A stretch of 64,000 nt of DNA from Sphaerodactylus townsendi (taxonomy: Eukaryota). The notes beneath the pieces were generated by a model that had not been told where the DNA came from, did no database searches, and worked only from the letters and a program-made list of their open reading frames with translations. The DNA is taken from positions 136,090,001-136,154,000 of the forward strand of contig NC_059427.1 of NCBI RefSeq assembly GCF_021028975.2, read 5' to 3'. The position numbers and the translations under genes are program-made. Positions 12,455 to 61,902 of the stretch are shown one piece after another (the stretch's first letter is position 1; every line of letters begins with the position of its first letter).

Positions 12455-12669
12455 TCATTTATTTGTTTTCTGAAACTAAATGCCATCCTCTCCAGACACT
12501 TGTTTGGGATTCTCAACTCACAGGTTAAAAATATAATAAAATTATACAAGAGCAATTTAAGAATTATCAATATTAATAAATCATAAAAAGTCAATAAAAC
12601 AAGATTACAACAATGAGCCACTGTCATAAAAAATAGGCACCTGATGAGCCTTGGGGGGAGTGCCAGGAG
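12455..12669 (-). mobile_element. Old L2-like LINE 3' end, interrupted by the Penelope element
   Basis: Reverse strand shows a T-rich 3' UTR ending in a degraded terminal stem-loop/aaataaat; L2-like sequence resumes at about 14700-14775. Confidence 0.4.
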
Positions 12670-12675
12670 TTAATA

Positions 12676-13737
12676 ATGTACAAACGATATATAGATGACT
12701 TGTTCTTTATTTTTGGTCCAGGTTTTGATTTTGAACACTTTTTGCACTGGATTAATTCCCTCCACACATCAGTTCAATTTGAAGGTCACTGGAACCAACA
12801 AACTATTAACTTTTTGGATACCAGAATCAGTTTAGACAGTGACAACAGGCTAATTTTCAACATCTATCATAAGCCTACAGACAAAAACAACGCATTACAT
12901 TTTCATTCATTTCATCCTTGTAGAGTGAATTTGCCCTTTAGCCAATTAGTTAGGGCAAAAAGGAACTCTACTACACAGGATTCCTTCAGAAAGGAAACTA
13001 ATAATATAATATATCAATATTATAACAGAGGATATCCTGAAACCATTTTGCAGACAGCCCTAAATAGAATTGACAACATTAACAGATCAGACTTGTTAAA
13101 ACCCAAGGAAAAGGAGAAACACACAACTCTGGTCCGGGCTTTAGATTACACTAGTAAAGCTATACAGATTCAATCTATAGTTAGAAAACACTGGCATATC
13201 GTTTCAGATTTACCTGGTTTTTCCAGCTTTCCTAAAATTGGATATCGGAGAACCAAAAATATTAGAGACACATTGGTTAGAGCTGACATAAGAACTAAAA
13301 TGATACCACCACCAATAATGTCTGGTCACTTTAAGTGTGGCAGATGCTCTGTCTGTTCTTTTTCCATGAATACCAACTTGATAGTAGACTCCTATTCAGG
13401 TTTCAAGTGGACATTAAAAGAATTTACTAATTGTAATACTACTAACTGTGTCTACCTTATTAGATGCCCATGTAATATGGTGTACATTGGCAAAACGACA
13501 CGCACTATCAAATTGAGGATCTCTGAGCATAAATCAAATATCAAACACAACACATTTCAGGAAACATGGACACACAGAAAATGATATGAGATTTCTGGTT
13601 CTTAAAAAATACAAACAAATCCCATTTGTTGATTTAAACAAATTTATTTTACAGGAAGAAAATAAATTCATTTACAAATTTCAAAGCCACAGATTTGGCT
13701 TAAAGAAAGATCTTGATTTTTCCTGCCACCTTAACTG
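12676..13737 (+). pseudogene. Penelope-like RT/GIY-YIG endonuclease, truncated and frameshifted near the C-terminus
   Basis: Open ORF 12676-13584 contains YKRYIDDLF (RT catalytic motif), INFLD, YHKPTD, the CGRCSVC linker and VYLIRCPCNMVYIGKTTRTIKLRISEH (GIY-YIG). An out-of-frame tail ...FGLKKDLDFSCHL continues to about 13735. Confidence 0.9.
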
Positions 13738-51664: not shown

Positions 51665-52710
51665 TTGTAAATTTAAAATAGAACAAAGGTTAGATACTTG
51701 GGGATTCTATTAGAAAATAATAGCAAGGGATTAATACACAACAACTATGACAGAATTTGGAATGAGATTAATAAAGACCTAAATAAATGGAAGAGTTTGA
51801 ATCTTTCCCTGTTAGGCAGGATTGGAATAATTAAAATGTCAGTCCTGCCAAGACTAATGTACCTTTTCCAGAATATTCCACTTATAACATCTGGGAAGAC
51901 ATTTAATGAGTGGAGAACAGAAATTACTAAATTTATTTGGGATGGTGAAAAAATTAAATATTTTAAATATAAAAATATGATAGGTATTAAAACAAATGGG
52001 GGATTACCCTTACCTGACATCCAGTTATATCATGATGCAGCAGCATTATCATGGATTACAGAATGGATTTTATTAAATAACAATGCATTATTGAAACTGA
52101 AAGGTTTCAATGTAAAAGCAGGCTGGCATAACCACTTATGGTCTAATTCTCCTGACAAAAAAGGAGACAGAATATTTAAAGACCACTACATGAGAAATAC
52201 ATTGTTAAAAATCTTGGTAAAATATAAGAATATATTTTACTTTAAACCCCGCCCCCCCCGGATTTCAAGGATGGAAGAGCTACAAATTAAAAATAGAAAT
52301 AAAAATGAGGCTTGGCCTTGATACAAAGAAATTTCACAGTGGGTAGGAGAGGTTCCAACATTAAAAACTAGAGCGTTAATAAAATTTGAAGAACAGGAAT
52401 GCCATTGGTTTACATATTTTCAGATCAGAAATAATTTCCTAAAAGACCAGGAAGCATGAGGAGTTGCCAAAAAAATATAATGTATTAGATATAGCTTTGT
52501 TGCACGAAGGATCAAAAATAATTAGTAAAATATACAAAATTTTGCTACAACAATAAATTGAAACAAGTAGTTAAAACGGTATGATTAAATGGGCAGAAAA
52601 TATTAACATAACAATATCTCTAGATCAATGGACAAGTTATTGGGAAAGTATTCACAAATGTTCTCCTAATATAGATATTTGGGGAAATAACTTAAAGATG
52701 TTCTACAGAA
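51665..52710 (+). mobile_element. L1-clade LINE ORF2 C-terminal fragment
   Basis: ORF 51698-52321 gives RYLGI...WKSLNLSLLGRIGIIKMSVLPRLMYLFQ...FIW...GGLPLPDIQLYH, typical of the L1 thumb/wrist region. Confidence 0.9.
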
Positions 52711-54425
52711 CTCAACTCAGCAGCTCTTTCGTCCTTGTCCTGATTGGCTGTTGTGTTGTGTTGGGGCAGGAATTTTTTAAAAAACTTTTTTTGCACAGTT
52801 ATGTCACCACACACATGCGTAGATAGAACGGTAGCTGTTTTTGCGCTAAGCTATGTTTATGCGTGGCTTTGGCATTCTTTACCCATGCAGCTGCACTGGC
52901 ACAAAAGTCTAATTTTAGTTTACAGTTGGCACAGAAATCACGTTCCACGCAGCCACGTTTCAATGTAGCTGCCACCAGTGCAAAACAAAAAAAGGGGCTG
53001 CGCATGAATTACGCACAGCCCACTGTGCTCTGATTGGCTGGAAGGCTCCACATTACTCCCAATGGTGGGAAAACAAACCTGCATTCAACCCCTGAACCTC
53101 TCCACCTCCCCAGTGATCTGACTTTGATGCACCTTTTTTAAAAAGGTGCACTTCCATGAAGGTTCTTAAAAATCACGTGATAAGGAGGAGAGGGAGCACC
53201 AGAATCTGGATGAATCCATGTTCAGCGGTTAAGCAGTGGGGAGTTCTTCCTGAAACCTTGATATTTTGCATGAGTATCACGCGATTAATTGACCGTGGGG
53301 ATTCGACCGTAATTTTATAATCCTCACCATGTCTGTTCATGGTTGCACAGAACTAACTAACCCTGTCATCATTCAATACCTTCTCATGGAAAACAATTAA
53401 TTTGATATGGAAATTACCTTCATTCCCTTATTTGATTGTCATCTCAGGTAAGGTGTTTATAGATAGAAAAATTAAATCAGGACTAAACACAACACTTTGT
53501 TTTCAGTGGCCATAAAGGGTTTGTGGAGGAAATGATTTCATTTTACACAAAGAGTGCAGGAACAGATCTTGTACATATATTAATTTATGTGTGCCTCTTC
53601 TATAAATGTACCTCAAAACCAAAGTAATTTGGCTACCCAAGAGAGAAGACTATGCAACTACAAGGAAAACAGACCTTGTTATATAGGGATATTGCTGAAA
53701 GTTGTGATTAGCTGATCTGGAATATGAACTTGTTCAGATTGTAATATTCAGAAGCAGAGCCACCAAGAGGAAGGGGTAGTGGGAACAAAATTTGTGCCCT
53801 GGGTCCTTTGAATTCCCAGCTTTCATTTTTTAAAAAGGTAAAAGGTAGCCCTTTCCATTGCAGAATTATACATTTCCCATTATATCTGTAGTAGAAGGAG
53901 ATGGCAACTTACTTTTTTAAAAAGTAAAAGCAGGAATCCATAGAATCTGGCACATACAAGTGTTATAACATATCAATCTATTATTAGCTAAGTGCCATTT
54001 AAAAAAACATATATTGAAAGTCTTTGGTGGAAGGGGAAGAAAATAGCTGCTGTGGGAAACCATCTCAGGGAAAATGGCTGTTGTGTGAGTGGAGAAAATC
54101 AAAATGGCTGAGAGGTTAAGCTGACACAAAATGGTGAGCACAGTTATGAGAAAAAGGCGAGAACTGCAAATAGTCTTTGGATGCACCTAAAATGCTCTTT
54201 TATCAAAGTACAAGCTTAATAGTGCCCAGAGTAAAGGCATTAACATAAGTAGCACTTAAAATAGCTTTTTAAACACTATCAGAGAATTGGGATGGGAGGA
54301 GGGAACAGAACTGGGCAGGCACTAGGACTGCAGGGGAGCATTCAATTGCACAGCAGGTTCAGGAAGTGGCTATGGATTAATTCAACACTTAGGTTCTTTC
54401 TTTCTGTGAGACAAAGTATAGCTAG

Positions 54426-55048
54426 TGATATGTACACATATATAGTTCACAGTGTTTTAAGCCATATATATATATAGTAGCCTGCACAAAAGGGTGGAGC
54501 ATGTTATATAAAATCATCTTAGCTAACATCCCTGCAGAGGCTTGGAATTGAAGTTGCTGAAAATCAGGTAAACACAAGGAATGTGAAGGGGTGCCAAGGA
54601 GCAGCCTGACACTAGCTCTAAGTTGAAAGGAACGGGGCCTCTCAGTAGAGATTAGCTAGCAAGACGTGCACCCAATAAATCAAACTTAGCAGAAACCTTG
54701 ATTGATATAGAAACTGTGCACATGAGGTGTTCTTAGACTCAAGTAAAATTAAAAATATGAGATGGAAAGGTGTGGTAAGAGGTGGGATAAGATGACCAGG
54801 TCTGTACGTTCACTTGACTCAACCCAATGAGCAAGAAACGGGGAGGTATGTTTTTGTAACTATAAATTATGTTACACAAGCAACAGCCCCTTTGAACCTC
54901 CTCCCTGTTGCTAACAGAGGAGAGTTCCCTCTTCTGCGCAGAATTGGAACAATAAACTCTGAACACTGAAGAAGTTTATGGATGGTTATTTCTGAGTAAC
55001 CGAACAGAGTCTTAGCTCTGAACACAGGACCTAGCCCTGTGCCTAACA
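54426..55048 (+). repeat. ERV 5' LTR
   Basis: TG...CA ends, CCAAT at about 54823, TATAAA at 54861, AATAAA at 54951. Confidence 0.95.
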
Positions 55049-55050
55049 AT

Positions 55051-55068
55051 TGGTGGCCCGTACGGGGA
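55051..55068 (+). promoter_or_regulatory. Primer binding site, tRNA-Ile
   Basis: TGGTGGCCCGTACGGGGA is complementary to the 3' 18 nt of vertebrate tRNA-Ile(AAU) and lies 2 nt after the LTR. Confidence 0.9.
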
Positions 55069-55575
55069 ATTAATCTTGATCTAGCTCTGGTTTGGACAGT
55101 CTCTCAGGGCTCTCAGCCTTTAGGGCGTCAGGGTCACTGTTCATTCTGCAGCTCAGCATCGGGATTGAAGACTCGACAACTTTTAGAGCCAATTCTTCAG
55201 TGCTCAGACTTTTAGCAAAGATTCCTGAAATAGGGAATCCTGAAGGTAACAGTTAGAGCAAGGATTTCTGGAACACGAATATCCTGGAGTAGGTCCTGAA
55301 ATAGGGACAAGATGGTGAGTAGTGGTTATTGAAATACACTACACAGGAGAGGGAGGAGGAAGGACGCTTTCTCAGAGGTCAAAGACAGGGGCATGGCCCC
55401 TCAGACCCCCCTTAAGGCACAAGTGCAATGGTAGAATAAAGGGAGGAAAGGGTACGCTCTTTCAGAGGTTTTAGATGGGAGGTATAGTGATAAGGATACC
55501 CCCGGAGACCCCCCTGGCAATAAGGTTGAGGTCAGTGGGACCAAGATGACCTATTGTTTTAAAGGTATGTAATTG

Positions 55576-55678
55576 CCGTGTTTCCCCAGGTATAAGACAG
55601 TATCTTATGTTGATTTTTGCTCCCAAAGATGTGCTGTGTCTTGTTTTTCAGGGATGTCTTATATTGGGGGAAACAAGG
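55576..55678. mobile_element. Tc2/pogo-like (Tc1/mariner superfamily) MITE inside the ERV
   Basis: TIRs ccgtgtttcccc...taagaca / tgtctta...ggggaaacaagg; TA on the right, TG on the left. Confidence 0.65.
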
Positions 55679-56859
55679 TAAAAGTTTAAATGGCTAGCCA
55701 AGAGTGTAAAAAGATTATTGTATTTAAAGTCTTCTTTTGTGAGTTTAGCTAATTTTTAGAGCTCTTTTATTTTAAGAAAATATTTCTGATAAAAAGAATT
55801 AAAACAGGCTGTTTAAAGTAAAAAGAAAAAAAATGCTTTTAGAGCAGTATTTTTTATCACAGGTCAGGGAGGAAAATCCTGCTCAGTGGTTCGATCATGT
55901 TTGTGTGTGAGAGAGAGAGGCTTTTTAGCCGTACGCGGGAACTGAAAGAAGGGGGAGCTGCAGCTATGTTAAAGTTTCTGTTTAGTTACAGAGACTAGAG
56001 GCATGGAGAAGCAAGAGTTTTTAGTTTAAGGAATGTGGAAAATGAGAAAGAGGCAGAGGGAAGAAGAAGAGGGGGTTGCCACCATTGGAATAAACAACCC
56101 TCTGCCTCGAGAAGGAATCAGAGTATAAAATGTAAAAAGGAGGGGAAAGCAGAATGATGTTTAAAGATGAATTTATGATGGCAGTTAAATAAGAAAGTAA
56201 ATTGAAAATAGGATGGATATTTATAAAACATAAATTGTAAAAAGGATAACATGAGGCTGGTCCTCAGTCCTTATAAACAGGGGCAAATGGGAGAGGAGAG
56301 CTAAAATGTTGCAACATTAATTAGGAGAAAGCAAATGCGTTTTTGAGGTAATAAAAGCATGTTTTGGAGTAAGTTAAAGTAACAGGATAAAGAAAAGGGG
56401 GCTGAGTTAGTTAGTTTCCTTAATGAAATGACATGTTTTAGTAATGCAACAAAATATGAATAGCATAGTAGTTTTAAGAAATTTTAAGATATTTGAACCT
56501 AGTGTTTTTAAAGATAATGTAGCCTTGTACCCAGTTTCCAAAGACCCCAAAAAATTTTAAACAGAGGTTTAGTATCAAGAACCAGTTTTTAATAGCTGCA
56601 GGAGAAACCAGGGGAAACTGGGGCACATGTTTGCACTTTTTAAAATTTAAAATTTCAGAATTGAAGTGAAGAGTAGAGCCTCCAGAAACGAACGCAGTAT
56701 TTTCTGACAGGCTGTCTGCTTCCAAATTGTTCAGGGAGAAAAAGCTGTATTGAATTACGTAAGATGAGATGGCAGGCTGCATGCCTGAAGAAAAAGGAGA
56801 GATAAAGAATTAACCCTTTTCTAACTGTGAGATGCCAGCTCCACTTAGTAAAGGGTGTG

Positions 56860-57266
56860 AAAGTCAATGAAGATAATTGAGGAACTGGAGCACTTTCCTT
56901 ATGAGGACAGGCTGCAGTGTTTAAGATTCTTTAGTTTAGAGAAGAGACGTCTGGGATATGATTGAAGTTTATAAAATTATGCGTGAAAAAAAATGTTGAC
57001 AGAGAAATTTTTCTCTCTTTCTCATGGCATTAAAAGCAGGGGCATACATTGAAAATGTTGGGGATACAAGGGGAGAGATTAGATTAATAAAAAAGAAACA
57101 TTTCTTTACGCGAATGTGTGATTAGTGTTTAAAATATGCTGCTACAGGAGGTGGGGATGGCCACCAGCCTGGATAGCTTTAAAAGGGTTTGGACAGATTT
57201 ATGGAGGAGAAGCCGAATCCATGGCTACCAATCTTGATCCTCCTTGATTTGGGATGGCAAACTGCC
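56860..57266 (+). mobile_element. CR1 3' fragment inside the ERV
   Basis: Aligns with 36853-37260; lacks the terminal UTR and tail and abuts pol sequence. Confidence 0.9.
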
Positions 57267-57269
57267 AGG

Positions 57270-57875
57270 AAATTTATGACATGCTCATTTGCTTAAATAT
57301 GAGGCTGTGTTACTGGAACAAACAGATTTAGTGTTAAACACAGACTCAAGAGTAAACCCAGCATCTTTCCTGCAAATAGATGGGAGCATAGAAGTAGGAA
57401 TTGACCATGACTGTTTAGGAATTGACACACTATCAAACTAAAACAAGATGGGACTTGGAGGAAGATCCCATTAAAGGAGAGCAGATTTGTTCATCAATGG
57501 CTCTTCTCGAATGGTAGAGGGGAAATGATGTAATGGATATACAGTTCTTCATGGAACTGAAATTCTAGAGCAAGGTTCCTTGCCCCTTGGTTGGTCAGCC
57601 CCAGACATGTGAATTATATGCACTGTGGAGAGCATTGCAGTTAGAGGAAGAAATGGGAATGTAAATATTTATACAAATTTAAAATATTTATATGGGGTTA
57701 TTTAGACCTTTGGGAAATTATGAAAGGAAAGAGGTCTTTGAATACAAGGGGCAAATCTTTGGCACACGAATAGTTAGTGGGAAAAGTTCTAGAAGCTCTA
57801 GAACTCGCAGGCCAAGTATCAGTGCTACATGTCAAAGGGTATCAAACAGGTAGCTCTGAAATTTTGGCTGACCAA
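57270..57875 (+). pseudogene. pol: ERV pol remnant: connection domain plus RNase H (copy 1)
   Basis: LLKYEAVLLEQTDLVL...NPASFL; LFINGSSRMVEGK*CNGY; WSA/QTCELYAL; IYTNLKY; TFGKL*KERG; HVKG. Confidence 0.85.
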
Positions 57876-57924
57876 GTAGAAAGAAAAAAAAAATATTTGG
57901 GGCACTTAATAGCACAAAGGAGGG

Positions 57925-58135
57925 TGACTGTTTTTAAATGGGTTTTCTAGGGTAATAGAGGGAAAAGGCACAATGGGTTTGTAGTAGTGGATGGGGAAAC
58001 AAGTAAAATTTTAGAGGCAAAGAGACTGCCTAATACCTGGTCAGCCCAAATTTGTGAGCTTTATACATTGAATTAGGCATTACAAAATTTAAAATACCAA
58101 GATGGAATGCTTTTGGAGTGTCATACTTTTTGGGG
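57925..58135 (+). pseudogene. pol: ERV RNase H remnant (copy 2, different lineage)
   Basis: LFLNGFSRVIEG/KRHNGFVVVDGETSKILEAKRLPNTWSAQICELYTLN*ALQNL. Confidence 0.8.
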
Positions 58136-58779
58136 GAAAAAAAAGGATTCTAGGATAGAAGGGGAAAGGGAAGTTGCTCTAGAATCAGGGGTGTGGTTTA
58201 TGAGAGATGGTCACAAGTGGATTGGTAGAGCAGTAGCCTATTTAGTGCTGCTTGGGGTAAGCCACTAAAAGTATTAGGGTGTTGGAAAACAACAATAAAT
58301 GTTTTTGATAAAGTTTTATAATGAGAGATAGGGTAAATAATTGTATAAGAATTATAAAATTTGTAAGGGGAAAAAGGGTTTGTGTTTTTGTAAAATGTAT
58401 TAAATATATATAGTTTTTTAAAAGTAATGTAGGGGGGAAAGGTCAAGGGGTATGTAATTATGAAAGATATGGAAAGAAAAGAGGGGAAAAGTAGAGATTG
58501 GAACATGAGTAAATATAGTCAAGCGAATTCTGGCCTGATAAAGAAAAGTCTGTTTTAAATTAAAAATCCTTTTTAGTTTATTTAGAGTTCAAACATAACC
58601 ATGGGATTATATTTTTTGTTTTTTAAGTGATGTGCAGCATTTTTGTATGGAATGTCATTTTATCACATGAGGGGGTAATTTTTGAAATCAATGATTGTTA
58701 TTAGGAAATGTGCTGCTGGTCTGGCCTTTGTTTCTGTTTTGTTTTACGGCAGGCGGCTTTATTACGAGATCCCGACACG

Positions 58780-58960
58780 AGTCCAGATCATAAGTTCTTG
58801 CCTAGAGACTGAGTCCTGTTGAAGCACTGAAAAAAAAAAAGAGTCCTTAGGAGGCAAAAGTAGGACGGGCCTTATTAAGTGCTGTTGGACGCATAGAGGT
58901 ATCAGTAAGGACAGAACGCGGATGGGCTTATTATATACGGGACAAAGCTTCATTGCCTCT
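58780..58960 (+). pseudogene. pol: ERV integrase C-terminal (GPY/F) remnant
   Basis: HKFLPRD*VLLKH*K...TGPY*VLL...VRTERGWAYY. Confidence 0.75.
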
Positions 58961-59840
58961 TGAGCCTGAACTGCTGTTATGCTTCCAGACCAGCTGTTTA
59001 AACTGACTTTGAGAAGAAAGCCAGACAACAAAACTGAACTTAAATTTTAATATTTAACTTCAGGACATTGACAGTTGAAAACTATAAGAAGACAATCCTG
59101 TTGGATACTAGAGAAGAAATTACAGAACTTTGCTTTTTAATTTAAAACCCCCTTTGACTTCCTTATGGACTTGATTTGAAAAATGAAGGACTTTTGTGTA
59201 AAAATGGGAGAGATAGGAGTTTTCAGATAGTGGGGAGGGTGCACTGGTGTTATCATTATTATGGAAAGGAGAGAAAAGAAGCTTCTAGCTTCTAAGACTA
59301 ATAGATTCCTGGGTACGGTGGTAGAGGTATCAAGACTGAGGCCTACAGTACTCTAATTGGTAAAATGGGTGGCAATATTGTAATCAATTCTTTTGATATA
59401 AGTGGTGTCATATAGTACATGCATTATATTAGTGGTGTGGGGGTTACCTTTTTCTAGTGTAGACAGAATGTTATAATAATAAGTTTTATAAAGTAGTAAG
59501 GTTAATGTTATTAGTGGCAAATGTTCTAAAATGTTGAGTATGCTCTAGAGAGCCTTTTTCTACTTGAGAGATGGGTTGGGTGGCTTACTAATTGAATTTC
59601 TTATTTGTGGTTAAAAAAAAATGTCTTTATGTTTATTTTAATGGTGACATAGTAATGGGTTATTATATGTATTTGTATGCAATGTTTATTACCTTTAAGC
59701 AGTTGTGCACATGCTACACGTCACAAGGTTTAATGGCTTTAGTTACAGAAAAGCACACTTATTTTAGAAAAGCACCAAGTTAACGCAGAGAAAAATAATA
59801 CAATTATGTAAATGCAAGTTTTAGTGGCTTAAAACAGTAT

Positions 59841-59860
59841 GAAAAAGGAAAAGGATGGAT
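59841..59860 (+). promoter_or_regulatory. Polypurine tract
   Basis: gaaaaaggaaaaggatggat immediately precedes the 3' LTR. Confidence 0.85.
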
Positions 59861-60487
59861 TGATATGTACACATATATAGTTCACAGTGTTTTAAGCCAT
59901 ATATATATATATATAGTAGCCTGCACAAAAGGGTGGAGCATGTTATATAAAATCATCTTAGCTAACATCCCTGCAGAGGCTTGGAATTGAAGTTGCTGAA
60001 AATCAGGTAAACACAAGGAATGTGAAGGGGTGCCAAGGAGCAGCCTGACACTAGCTCTAAGTTGAAAGGAACGGGGCCTCTCAGTAGAGATTAGCTAGCA
60101 AGACGTTCACAAAATAGATAAGAGTTAGCAGAAGACTTGATTGCTATAGAAACTGTGTACATGAGGTGTTTTTAGACTCAAGTAACATTAAAAATATGAG
60201 ATGGAAAGGTGTGGTAAGAGGTGGGATAAGATGACCAGGTCTGTACGTTCACTTGACTCAACCCAATGAGCAAGAAACGGGGAGGTATGTTTTTGTAACT
60301 ATAAATTATGTTACACAAGCAACAGCCCCTTTGAACCTCCTCCCTGTTGCTAACAGAGGAGAGTTCCCTCTTCTGCGCAGAATTGAAACAATAAACTCTG
60401 AACACTGAAGAAGCTTATGGATGGTTATTTGTGAGTAACCGGACAGAGTTTTAGCTCTGAACACAGGGCTCTGCCCTGTGCCTAACA
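59861..60487 (+). repeat. ERV 3' LTR
   Basis: Direct repeat of 54426-55048. Confidence 0.95.
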
Positions 60488-60901
60488 CTAGGATAGATAG
60501 AGATGCAGGATGCATGTCCTGCCATCATGGTACCAAGATGGAGAAAAGAGAAATGTGGAAGGAAGTTTCAGACAGAAGGAAGATTCCCGGAGAGTAGCAA
60601 TCTACACATCAAAGGTATAGAATCAGAGCAGCAAAAAGGAAGTGAAGACAACTGCCTTTTGACAAGACTACCTTGAAAGAAGAATGGAAGAGAAAGCAAG
60701 GATTCAACTATTTTTCTATAAGAGTTCAATTCAACGAGCTGGAGAAGGTTCAACTAACACATCATTTATCCTTCAGAAAGCTTATGGAACTAGTTTAGAT
60801 GTCCCTCTTCTGTGGCCTAAATCACTGGTTTTGTGACATTTCCTGCCCTGCCAAAACCAAACTATATTATTTAGAACTGTCCTTAGACAGTAACTGTCTA
60901 A

Positions 60902-61030
60902 GGCTGATTCCGTATGGGCCAAAAACAGCAGTGTGAAAACGTTGTGAAAATGGTGTAAAAGGATTTAAAACAGTGTAAAAGGGTTTATACTGTTTTCACA
61001 CTGCTGTTTTTGGCCCATGCGGAATCAGCC
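60902..61030. mobile_element. 129-bp palindromic Harbinger-type MITE
   Basis: About 39-bp TIR ggctgattccgtatgggccaaaaacagcagtgtgaaaac. Confidence 0.8.
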
Positions 61031-61902
61031 TCTGTAACTGTCCTTAGACATTCATTTCAGGCTGGTGTTAGGGCTTTTTCCATTGGAATCAGGCTGTGCA
61101 GAGATAATCACTTTTCAGAATCTTTTGGATGGTACTGAAAAACTGGTTTTGCTTGTGGCACACAAGGATATTTTTACTGCCCCTTTCTGGATCTCTGATG
61201 AAACAGTTTCGCAGGGTTTTGCAAGGCCTGATGCTTCACTTCTAAGAAGCCAAAAACTAATAACCAGAAAGCATGGCAAACACAGCTGCACACAGACCAG
61301 CTTCAATTTTGGTGGGGCTGTCTAGGGAAAATGACTTCTGGACAATTCTTGCAGTGAGCAAGATACACAAACATAGAATGCCAGGAGTAATTTTGGAACT
61401 GGATTGAATTCTTTTCTTAAATACATGATTAAAGGATGCAATATATTAATGCACTCTGGTTCGGCATCTTCAAAAGAAAAAAGTATGGCTTTAGAAGTGG
61501 AATTAACTAGACAGATTTATTCATCTAGCTGAGTCATCATTCATCATTCAATTGACTTCAGTGAGGTAAGAAATAATTGTTGTCTTCAAGTATTAGGAAA
61601 GTTTAGTGAGAACAGGTTTTTGCCCTACCAGAGGAAATTTCCTTGCATTTCCTCTACCATATTTCTATAAAGCTAATAATGGTGGAAACCATTCCTATTC
61701 CCAGTAGGATGGAAATTCTGCCACTTGCTCCAGATGAAAAGTAATATACCGGTAGATTTATAAAATTGGAGTACATTTTCTATGTGATAAGGCTAAAAAC
61801 TATGGGGATTTTAAAGCTCGCAGGGCCTTCCCTATTCCCTCTCCACTTCCCCTGATCTACCTACCCAGGCCCAGTGGAATGTGACAAGCCTTCTATCCAT
61901 TC

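Follow-up and report, generated by a model that had tools for sequence, protein, structure and literature searches.

Non-autonomous endogenous retroviruses (ERVs) have mainly been documented in mice and the koala (PMC4859993, PMC6466679, PMC6112702). Mouse VL30 is the closest in build: it is a class I, non-coding element of 4-6 kb in which LTRs, primer site and purine tract are intact, flanked by 4-bp duplications and accompanied by solo LTRs, which is stated to be co-packaged with MLV and uses several primer tRNAs (PMC4859993; PMC6466679). In the mouse ETn/MusD pair, the non-coding partner is the more numerous of the two and retains gene traces, and its trans-mobilisation has been demonstrated (PMC6466679). 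In the koala recKoRV/PhER system, an old element has been remobilised, so that young LTRs enclose an old non-coding interior; dissimilar retroelements recombine there at microhomologies, and the integrase of the intact virus is needed (PMC6112702). The gecko element described below has the cis signals, the non-coding interior, the 4-nt duplications and the solo LTRs of VL30. A literature search by title and abstract start found no reptile case of such an element, which is a weak negative because subscription papers were thinly covered.

We analysed a window of 64,000 nucleotides from Sphaerodactylus townsendi, in which positions 54426 to 60487 hold an ERV. This element belongs to a multi-copy family, hereafter called “family A”, whose copies share junctions and stop codons and carry their own target-site duplications. 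Two full-length donor proviruses, H (locus L044) and V (locus L063), reside in the same genome, as does a sister family, “family B”, with V-type ends. We consider it probable that family A is a non-coding ERV family with intact cis signals, copied by a helper related to H and patched through template switching.

The window element

The LTR pair lies at 54426-55048 (623 nt) and 59861-60487 (627 nt), both LTRs having TG...CA termini, and is bounded by the target-site duplication CTAG (54422..54425 and 60488..60491). The element reads on the + strand. Its primer binding site (55051..55068) matches the 3′ end of genomic tRNA-Ile(AAT) plus CCA at 18/18 positions, and the 25-mer spanning the LTR end and primer site also occurs in provirus H. 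A polypurine tract (59843..59860) adjoins the 3′ LTR. The interior, 4,812 nt long, has no stop-free stretch above 111 aa; a Pfam search of 12 read-through frames returned a single match, to RNase H, at E 0.19, which is under the cut-off, and none to reverse transcriptase (RT). The sequence-only reading had reported intact and mostly identical LTRs, a perfect tRNA-Ile primer site, a purine tract, a target duplication and the loss of any long reading frame or RT core, and it was right on each.

How young is this copy? The aligned LTRs are unlike at 19/622 columns (3.05%), with 3 indels, and the differences fall in two clusters, at LTR positions 243-322 and 522-608; outside both, the LTRs are identical except for (AT)n length. 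The 3′ LTR is of the common family A type by LTR comparison, and the 5′ LTR is 72% identical to the LTR of H. The base set of the 5′ LTR appears in none of the other 83 LTR alignments, 59 of which span the first cluster at least partly, and we therefore ruled out dating the copy by LTR-pair divergence. At position 54668, contigs from 4 sequencing runs show the family base, although such contigs drop rare variants. The private bases reflect either an assembly error or conversion. With the pair 3% apart, youth cannot be proved from the window copy alone.

The viral remnants of the interior follow the gag-pol-env order, all of them on the + strand, forming a colinear backbone with large deletions and patches, rather than the scrambled remnants described earlier. 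An inverted env piece at 56021-56263, suspected on a minus-strand reading, was rejected as all H matches lie on the + strand. The backbone is 67-78% identical to H, and to this extent the interior is ancient, as had been claimed; the claim fails for two patches that are 89-91% like full-length proviruses. From the 5′ end, the leader, a likely packaging region, and a broken gag start (55069..55530) consist of H-related pieces (73-78%; 15.9% substitutions over 251 columns), with a fold z of -2.7 relative to mononucleotide shuffles only. Next, a piece of a high-copy host repeat (55576..55665), with 85-90% matches at many unrelated genomic sites, sits in an insert of about 120 nt in one sub-lineage (13/38 family A loci); we take it to be a DNA-transposon end. 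A degraded core with gag remnants (55684..56831) follows, which is common to family B (13-23% substitutions) and in which residues 382-450 of H gag match 55854-56021 by tblastn.

The next segment (56859..57261) is a LINE 3′ fragment, presumably CR1-like, with 81% identity to genomic copies. It has changed at 36/331 sites, as compared to 67/4,690 among the genomic LINE copies; a comparison with phage sequences gave no match and is uninformative. It meets, at a short sequence common to both, a recent H-like patch of 605 nt in the pol connection/RNase H region (57258..57862; 91.3% over 609 columns), which carries stops and a frameshift and whose changes are distributed 13/9/23 over the three codon positions. 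The V patch (57875..58107) comprises a 36-nt RT scrap (80.6% to V over 36 nt) and a 195-nt RNase H piece, which is 89.3% identical to V over 196 columns as compared to 59% to H. These two pieces are also joined at a short shared sequence, like the LINE|pol junction. Further downstream are a degraded, C-poor core segment common to family B (58222..58503; 71-73% to its copies), an old H-lineage remnant of the integrase 3′ part (58621..59020; tblastn E 3e-10, DNA 67-72%), and finally an H-lineage env start fused to the env end with the middle deleted (59402..59808; tblastn E 2.5e-9 and 2.8e-14), which is 83-86% identical to family B.

Copies of family A

The interior search, with 34 of 8,495 candidates scored, placed the family A interior at no fewer than 33 sites, and 38 loci were tabulated. 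The V patch is found in 37/38 loci, the env join in 35/38 and the LINE|pol junction in 31/38, and the commonest stop sites are common to 21/34, 12/36 and 10/37 copies. None of the 5′ flanks of 27 copies forms a similar pair with another. Among the 31 copies with an LTR pair, 22 have exact 4-nt target duplications and 9 gave none, while the longest open stretch is 83-196 aa in every one; solo LTRs flanked by 4-nt duplications account for 14 of another 17 LTR loci. The clustered differences between the window LTRs would suit a single old provirus whose LTRs were homogenised by gene conversion, and segmental duplication could in principle multiply it, but the unrelated flanks, distinct duplications and junctions present at 31-37 of 38 loci refute this explanation, short of assembly errors at most of the loci, and we regard it as scarcely credible. 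The multi-locus comparison had been proposed with the initial reading, together with the alternative of an arrangement unique to this locus; the latter is contradicted by these copies. That the family ferries host repeat sequence was likewise borne out, with repeat pieces at many family A loci.

The LTR pairs of L002 and L024 differ at only 2/623 and 1/555 positions, and yet their interiors are 6.07% apart. Since these copies have near-identical LTRs (0.2-0.3%) and are equally non-coding, the damage is older than the insertions, as the sequence-only reading had argued for the window copy. Contigs of 4 sequencing runs (3 studies, 3 organisms) cover 30/30 bins of the interior of the window element, and no RNA run is among the runs listed as containing it. 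In many family A copies the LTR pair is rich in indels and the primer site garbled, which is likely assembly noise, and this noise would lower identities and possibly create spurious stops. In addition to the fixed 91% patch, L022, L029 and L043 each have a private H-like patch of 92-95%, suggesting repeated exchange with an H-like virus.

Donor proviruses and family B

Provirus H has open frames for gag (579 aa), pol (1176 aa) and env (510 aa), an LTR pair 1.2% apart and a 4-nt duplication, and is the sole full match for its RT region among the 40 of 43 candidates scored. H is a candidate for the intact helper that had been predicted: it fits in its genes and its LTR-end/primer motif, but not in the LTR, which is only 72-75% identical to that of family A. 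This LTR distance and the third-position excess in the H-like patch indicate that the patch donor was a sibling of L044 and not L044 itself; the true helper may be absent from the assembly. Provirus V, which the initial reading had missed along with family B, has open frames, a single RT copy, a different primer site and an unrelated LTR of about 1,445 nt. The two proviruses share 53.5% pol identity and about 67% DNA identity where alignable, V falling in a separate subclade. With Gag p30, RT, RNase H, an MLV-type integrase C-terminus and a TLV coat env detected by Pfam on H, the donors are class I (gamma-like) ERVs. Both group with sequences from snakes, lizards and birds, outside the fork holding Rauscher MLV, in a midpoint-rooted pol tree of 29 rows built by a quick search. 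The tRNA-Ile primer site of family A fits the HERV-I-like label given in the sequence-only reading; no HERV-I label occurs among the 120 matches listed or in this tree.

Family B comprises five loci (L082, L089, L093, L095 and L097), three with paired LTRs. Its copies have V-type LTR, leader, gag and env pieces (75-94%, part of the LTR being 93-99% like V) next to integrase and env remnants from the H lineage. The LINE 5′ breakpoint is the same as in family A, agreeing within 2 nt between the window element and L082 and L093, and the LINE tail, which is gone from the window element, is retained.

These observations bear on the proposal that an H-like virus alone moves family A, and that rare DNA-level conversion or ectopic recombination between proviruses produced both the V piece and family B, with no co-packaging across lineages. 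The V piece of family A is short and fixed, for which a single event is enough, and cross-packaging has left no direct sign. However, V patches were gained several times independently in family B, and five of its loci carry V-type ends, three of them with paired LTRs. Moreover, the env segment is closer between the two families (12-14% substitutions) than the remaining core (17-23%, or 13-16% in one short segment), one family B copy contains an H-type LTR piece, and DNA only about 67% alike where aligned should be a poor substrate for homologous recombination. We therefore consider a single helper unlikely. Target duplications differ in length: family A gave 36 of 4 nt and none of 5 nt, as compared to nine and five for V-type solo LTRs (p 0.0009), in a test in which one of the V-type 5-mers is a C run. 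Of the 30 V-type loci, the test leaves out 15 (ten with no start found, four with no duplication, including one proviral 3′ LTR, and V's own 5′ LTR), together with one solo LTR exactly of the V type, whose duplication is 4 nt.

Mobilisation and known systems

We propose the following history. An H-lineage provirus would first have received the LINE insertion and lost its coding capacity, and its descendants would then have split. Family A would have kept its H-lineage ends; a fresh H-like piece would later have supplanted the LINE tail and the old RNase H, and the V piece would have been gained. Family B would have acquired the LTR, leader, primer site and env end of V, and these ends imply a likely shift to the machinery of V. 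The proteins of an intact H-like relative probably carry family A to new sites, and template switches with co-packaged RNA probably supplied the H-like and V-like pieces, although DNA-level conversion could have produced the patches instead. Copying in trans by both H-like and V-like viruses is what the shared junctions and donor patches would suggest.

Where, then, did the core decay? Sense-strand C is 12.9% in the window element and 17.8% in H, and the unpolarised changes in the old backbone are C>T 59/192 and G>A 45/280. APOBEC C-to-U editing of the sense strand was considered and rejected, as the polarised rates are symmetric (C>T 0.188, G>A 0.160, p 0.24); fixed changes give 0.117 and 0.091 (p 0.18), and both polarised changes are 4-5 times as frequent as the reverse ones. 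Such strand symmetry is expected for the decay of double-stranded DNA. It would fit a core that lay dormant and decayed as proviral DNA, and was re-mobilised in bursts by an arriving related virus, as in recKoRV/PhER. Consistently, the family B LINE is 5′-truncated with its tail intact, resembling an ordinary insertion into DNA, and the identities fall in layers of 67-78%, 89-91% and 92-95%. However, 9-11% separates the fixed H and V patches from the proviruses, while the LTRs of H are only about 1% apart, and the young copies are 5-6% apart, which many cycles of reverse transcription would also explain. We hold this serial rescue to be possible but doubtful; it alters only the place of decay, a helper still being required, and it cannot be separated from steady parasitism on the present data.

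The helper-copied, template-switched family that we favour may also have a wider significance, as a promiscuous satellite retrovirus in which one non-coding core exploited two co-resident lineages (pol 53% alike), changing LTR, primer tRNA and integrase and shuttling sequence and host repeats between them; we advance this tentatively, as having close to an even chance. The genome provides a layered record of a parasite: both donor viruses are still there, the copies agree exactly in their breakpoints, and a sister family carries the ends of the other virus. The maximum distance at which two retroviruses still exchange sequence, and the possible outliving of a helper through a change of partner, thereby become testable by sequence. 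For dating, LTR-pair identity is silent on the age of the interior, and interior decay is silent on the age of insertion. In soybean, Du et al. (2010) reportedly found that non-autonomous retrotransposons swap LTRs with autonomous ones, a partner change through LTR exchange judging by the title; those are plant LTR retrotransposons, unlike the gecko ERVs.

The animal systems differ from the gecko families as follows. Unlike in VL30, with which the likeness drawn is one of features, two named donor proviruses are seen as patches and host repeats are aboard (PMC4859993; PMC6466679). ETn/MusD is class II, with one partner and a shared LTR family, whereas the gecko elements belong to class I, their partners carry env, and the LTRs are only about 73% alike (PMC6466679). 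The recKoRV arrangement—ends of a young virus around an old interior—is approached by family B, whose LTR is partly 93-99% like V, while the family A LTR is only 72-75% like H. In recKoRV the old interior sits within one invading virus and no reciprocal forms were found, whereas two LTR lineages that use different primers share the gecko core, and family A holds pol pieces from both viruses (PMC6112702). By analogy, family A would work like VL30, ETn and recKoRV, and its novelty would lie in the history with two helpers.

Structure of the element and its family

The ERV element at 54426–60487 is bounded by LTRs of 623 and 627 nt and a CTAG duplication, and carries a purine tract and a primer site matching a genomic tRNA-Ile(AAT) at 18/18 positions, in agreement with the sequence-only reading. 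The primer site is the one feature that suggests an affinity with HERV-I. As was also claimed, the 4,812-nt interior lacks a long ORF: the longest open stretch is 111 aa, and a Pfam search of 12 read-through frames gave nothing above the cut-off. The LTRs had been described as identical over most of their length, and they differ at 19 of 622 columns, in two clusters. The base set of the 5′ LTR is absent from all others in 83 LTR alignments, and contigs from four sequencing runs carry the family base at the first difference site. This LTR pair is therefore an unreliable clock, and its private 5′ bases may reflect error or conversion.

The element is a member of a real non-autonomous ERV family (family A). 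An interior search, which scored 34 of 8,495 candidates, found matches at no fewer than 33 places, a lower bound, and 38 loci were tabulated with later finds. These share the V patch (37 loci), the env join (35), the junction between the LINE fragment and pol (31), a repeat insert (13) and an H patch with an uninterrupted middle (11). An exact 4-nt duplication accompanies 22 of the 31 copies with an LTR pair, and of 17 additional LTR loci, 14 consist of a solo LTR flanked by a 4-nt duplication. The same interior thus recurs at differently flanked loci, as anticipated: 27 5′ flanks, compared after setting aside five loci with unclear ends or representing H itself, lack mutual similarity. One copy (L030:2218–4686) has an additional 2.5-kb insert without a match in H, V or the tested LINE, and L031 and L090 (G000:C2, ~142.349–142.360 Mb) form a tandem of two interiors with the middle LTR in common.

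In the cleanest copies, L002 and L024, the LTR pairs are only 0.32% and 0.18% apart, while the interiors, both equally non-coding, differ by 6.07%. The damage therefore predates these insertions, as had been proposed. In many other copies the LTR pairs are rich in indels and the primer sites garbled; noise in the assembly is the likely cause, and the identities there are underestimates. The family interior was found in contigs of three organisms. One 1,020-nt contig, from organism C (run X6, record 26), has a depth of 575, which weakly suggests that near-identical copies arose in that organism in a recent burst.

Two proviral donors

Where did the interior obtain its pieces? Provirus H (L044) is full-length, with open gag (579 aa), pol (1,176 aa) and env (510 aa) encoding Gag_p30, RVP, RVT_1, RNase_H, rve, MLVIN_C and TLV_coat domains; its LTRs are 1.2% apart, and its RT region has no other full match among the 40 of 43 candidates scored. 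A search for an intact helper with the same LTR and primer site had been suggested: H shares an identical LTR-end/primer 25-mer with the window element, but the LTRs are only 72–75% identical. The interior had been called scrambled and ancient-looking. LINE and host-repeat pieces are inserted, but the viral backbone is colinear with H in the leader, gag start, integrase end, and env start and end; it looks old, at 67–78% identity, but two patches do not.

The H patch (57258–57862) is 91.3% identical to H and starts at a short sequence common to the LINE and H pol. Its differences by codon position (13/9/23, with four stops) suggest that the donor was a sibling of L044 and that neutral decay followed. 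L022, L029 and L043 have private H-like patches (92–95%); exchange with an H-like virus therefore recurred.

The V patch (57913–58107) is 89.3% identical to the RNase H of the open-frame provirus V (L063) and only 59% to that of H, and is directly preceded by a 36-nt RT scrap of V. Its codon-position counts (10/4/6) are as would be expected for neutral decay. V and H share 53.5% identity in pol, and a quick tree places V in a different subclade from H, within a snake/lizard/bird group outside the MLV fork. V has a single RT copy, an unrelated LTR of ~1,445 nt, and a different primer site, presumably for tRNA-Gly. At L083:4241 onwards, the 3′ LTR of V enters a long low-complexity stretch rich in G, where the assembly is probably at fault. 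The ERV load of this genome is unusually fresh: at least five class I proviruses have long open gag and pol (L044, L063/L083, L066, L067 and L068, on G000 C10, C8, C5, C11 and C874), and fall into three groups that differ in primer site.

Sister family and host sequence

In family B (L082, L089, L093, L095 and L097), the LTRs, the leader, scraps of gag and the end of env are V-type, but the core is that of family A: the segments at 55684–56831 and 58222–58503, integrase and env remnants of the H lineage, and the LINE fragment, whose 5′ breakpoint coincides within 2 nt where scored. In place of the fresh H patch of family A, family B retains the tail of the LINE and an old piece of pol (66–73% to H), and therefore appears to represent the earlier state at that place. 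The families diverge by 13–23% in the core and 12–14% in env. Solo V-type LTRs have 4-nt (n = 9) or 5-nt (n = 5) duplications, in a count covering 14 of 30 V-type loci, and family A has 4-nt duplications only (n = 36; p 0.0009), which fits two integrases. Three more degraded elements (L062, L080 and L081), sharing 56048–56760 and old H-like pol pieces, are possibly a third branch of this core; L080 and L081 additionally hold gag, integrase and env remnants from other ERV groups.

The claim that the family carries host repeats is borne out by the LINE fragment, which we take to be CR1-like, and by the repeat insert, ~90 nt from a high-copy repeat that is presumably the end of a DNA transposon. 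The LINE piece is changed at 36 of 331 sites, as compared to 67 of 4,690 among 13 genomic copies, and its source may be an older subfamily. Most simply, each piece would have inserted once into a provirus and then been copied along. The window also contains a small MITE-like element (60901–61031), whose 40-nt inverted arms are 98% complementary and separated by 51 nt. Two open frames presumably resemble the ends of retroelement proteins, that at 12637–13584 the RT/endonuclease end of the Penelope type and that at 51677–52321 the RT end of the L1/Tx1 type.

Probable mobilisation in trans and known parallels

An RNA need not encode its own replication proteins: if it has LTRs, a primer site, a purine tract and a packaging signal, proteins supplied in trans can copy it. 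Reverse transcriptase also jumps between co-packaged RNAs, often where short sequences coincide. Judged from sequence, the family anatomy fits both processes at each step: the family RNA would be packaged and copied by proteins from an intact virus, and would gain H-like and V-like pieces by template switching with co-packaged RNA. The decay may have accrued over many rounds of replication, or in DNA that lay dormant from one rescue to the next. The polarised changes are strand-symmetric GC-to-AT transitions, 4–5 times the reverse direction, and this symmetry rules out C-to-U editing. We consider it probable that family A is a non-autonomous ERV family mobilised in trans and patched from H-like and V-like viruses. 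More tentatively, and at slightly less than even weight, the core may have parasitised both lineages and passed sequence between them.

A literature search, with most subscription papers outside its reach, found neither a reptile case nor a vertebrate core divided between two helper lineages; LTR swapping is reportedly the subject of a soybean paper, judging by its title. The kind of element represented by family A is already known. In the accessible text of the sources, VL30 elements are non-coding and 4–6 kb long, keep their replication signals intact, show 4-bp duplications and use several primer tRNAs (PMC4859993); they are co-packaged with MLV, and MusD mobilises ETn (PMC6466679). Likewise, recKoRV is described there as a PhER interior between KoRV ends, 5 of 17 breakpoints showing microhomology (PMC6112702).
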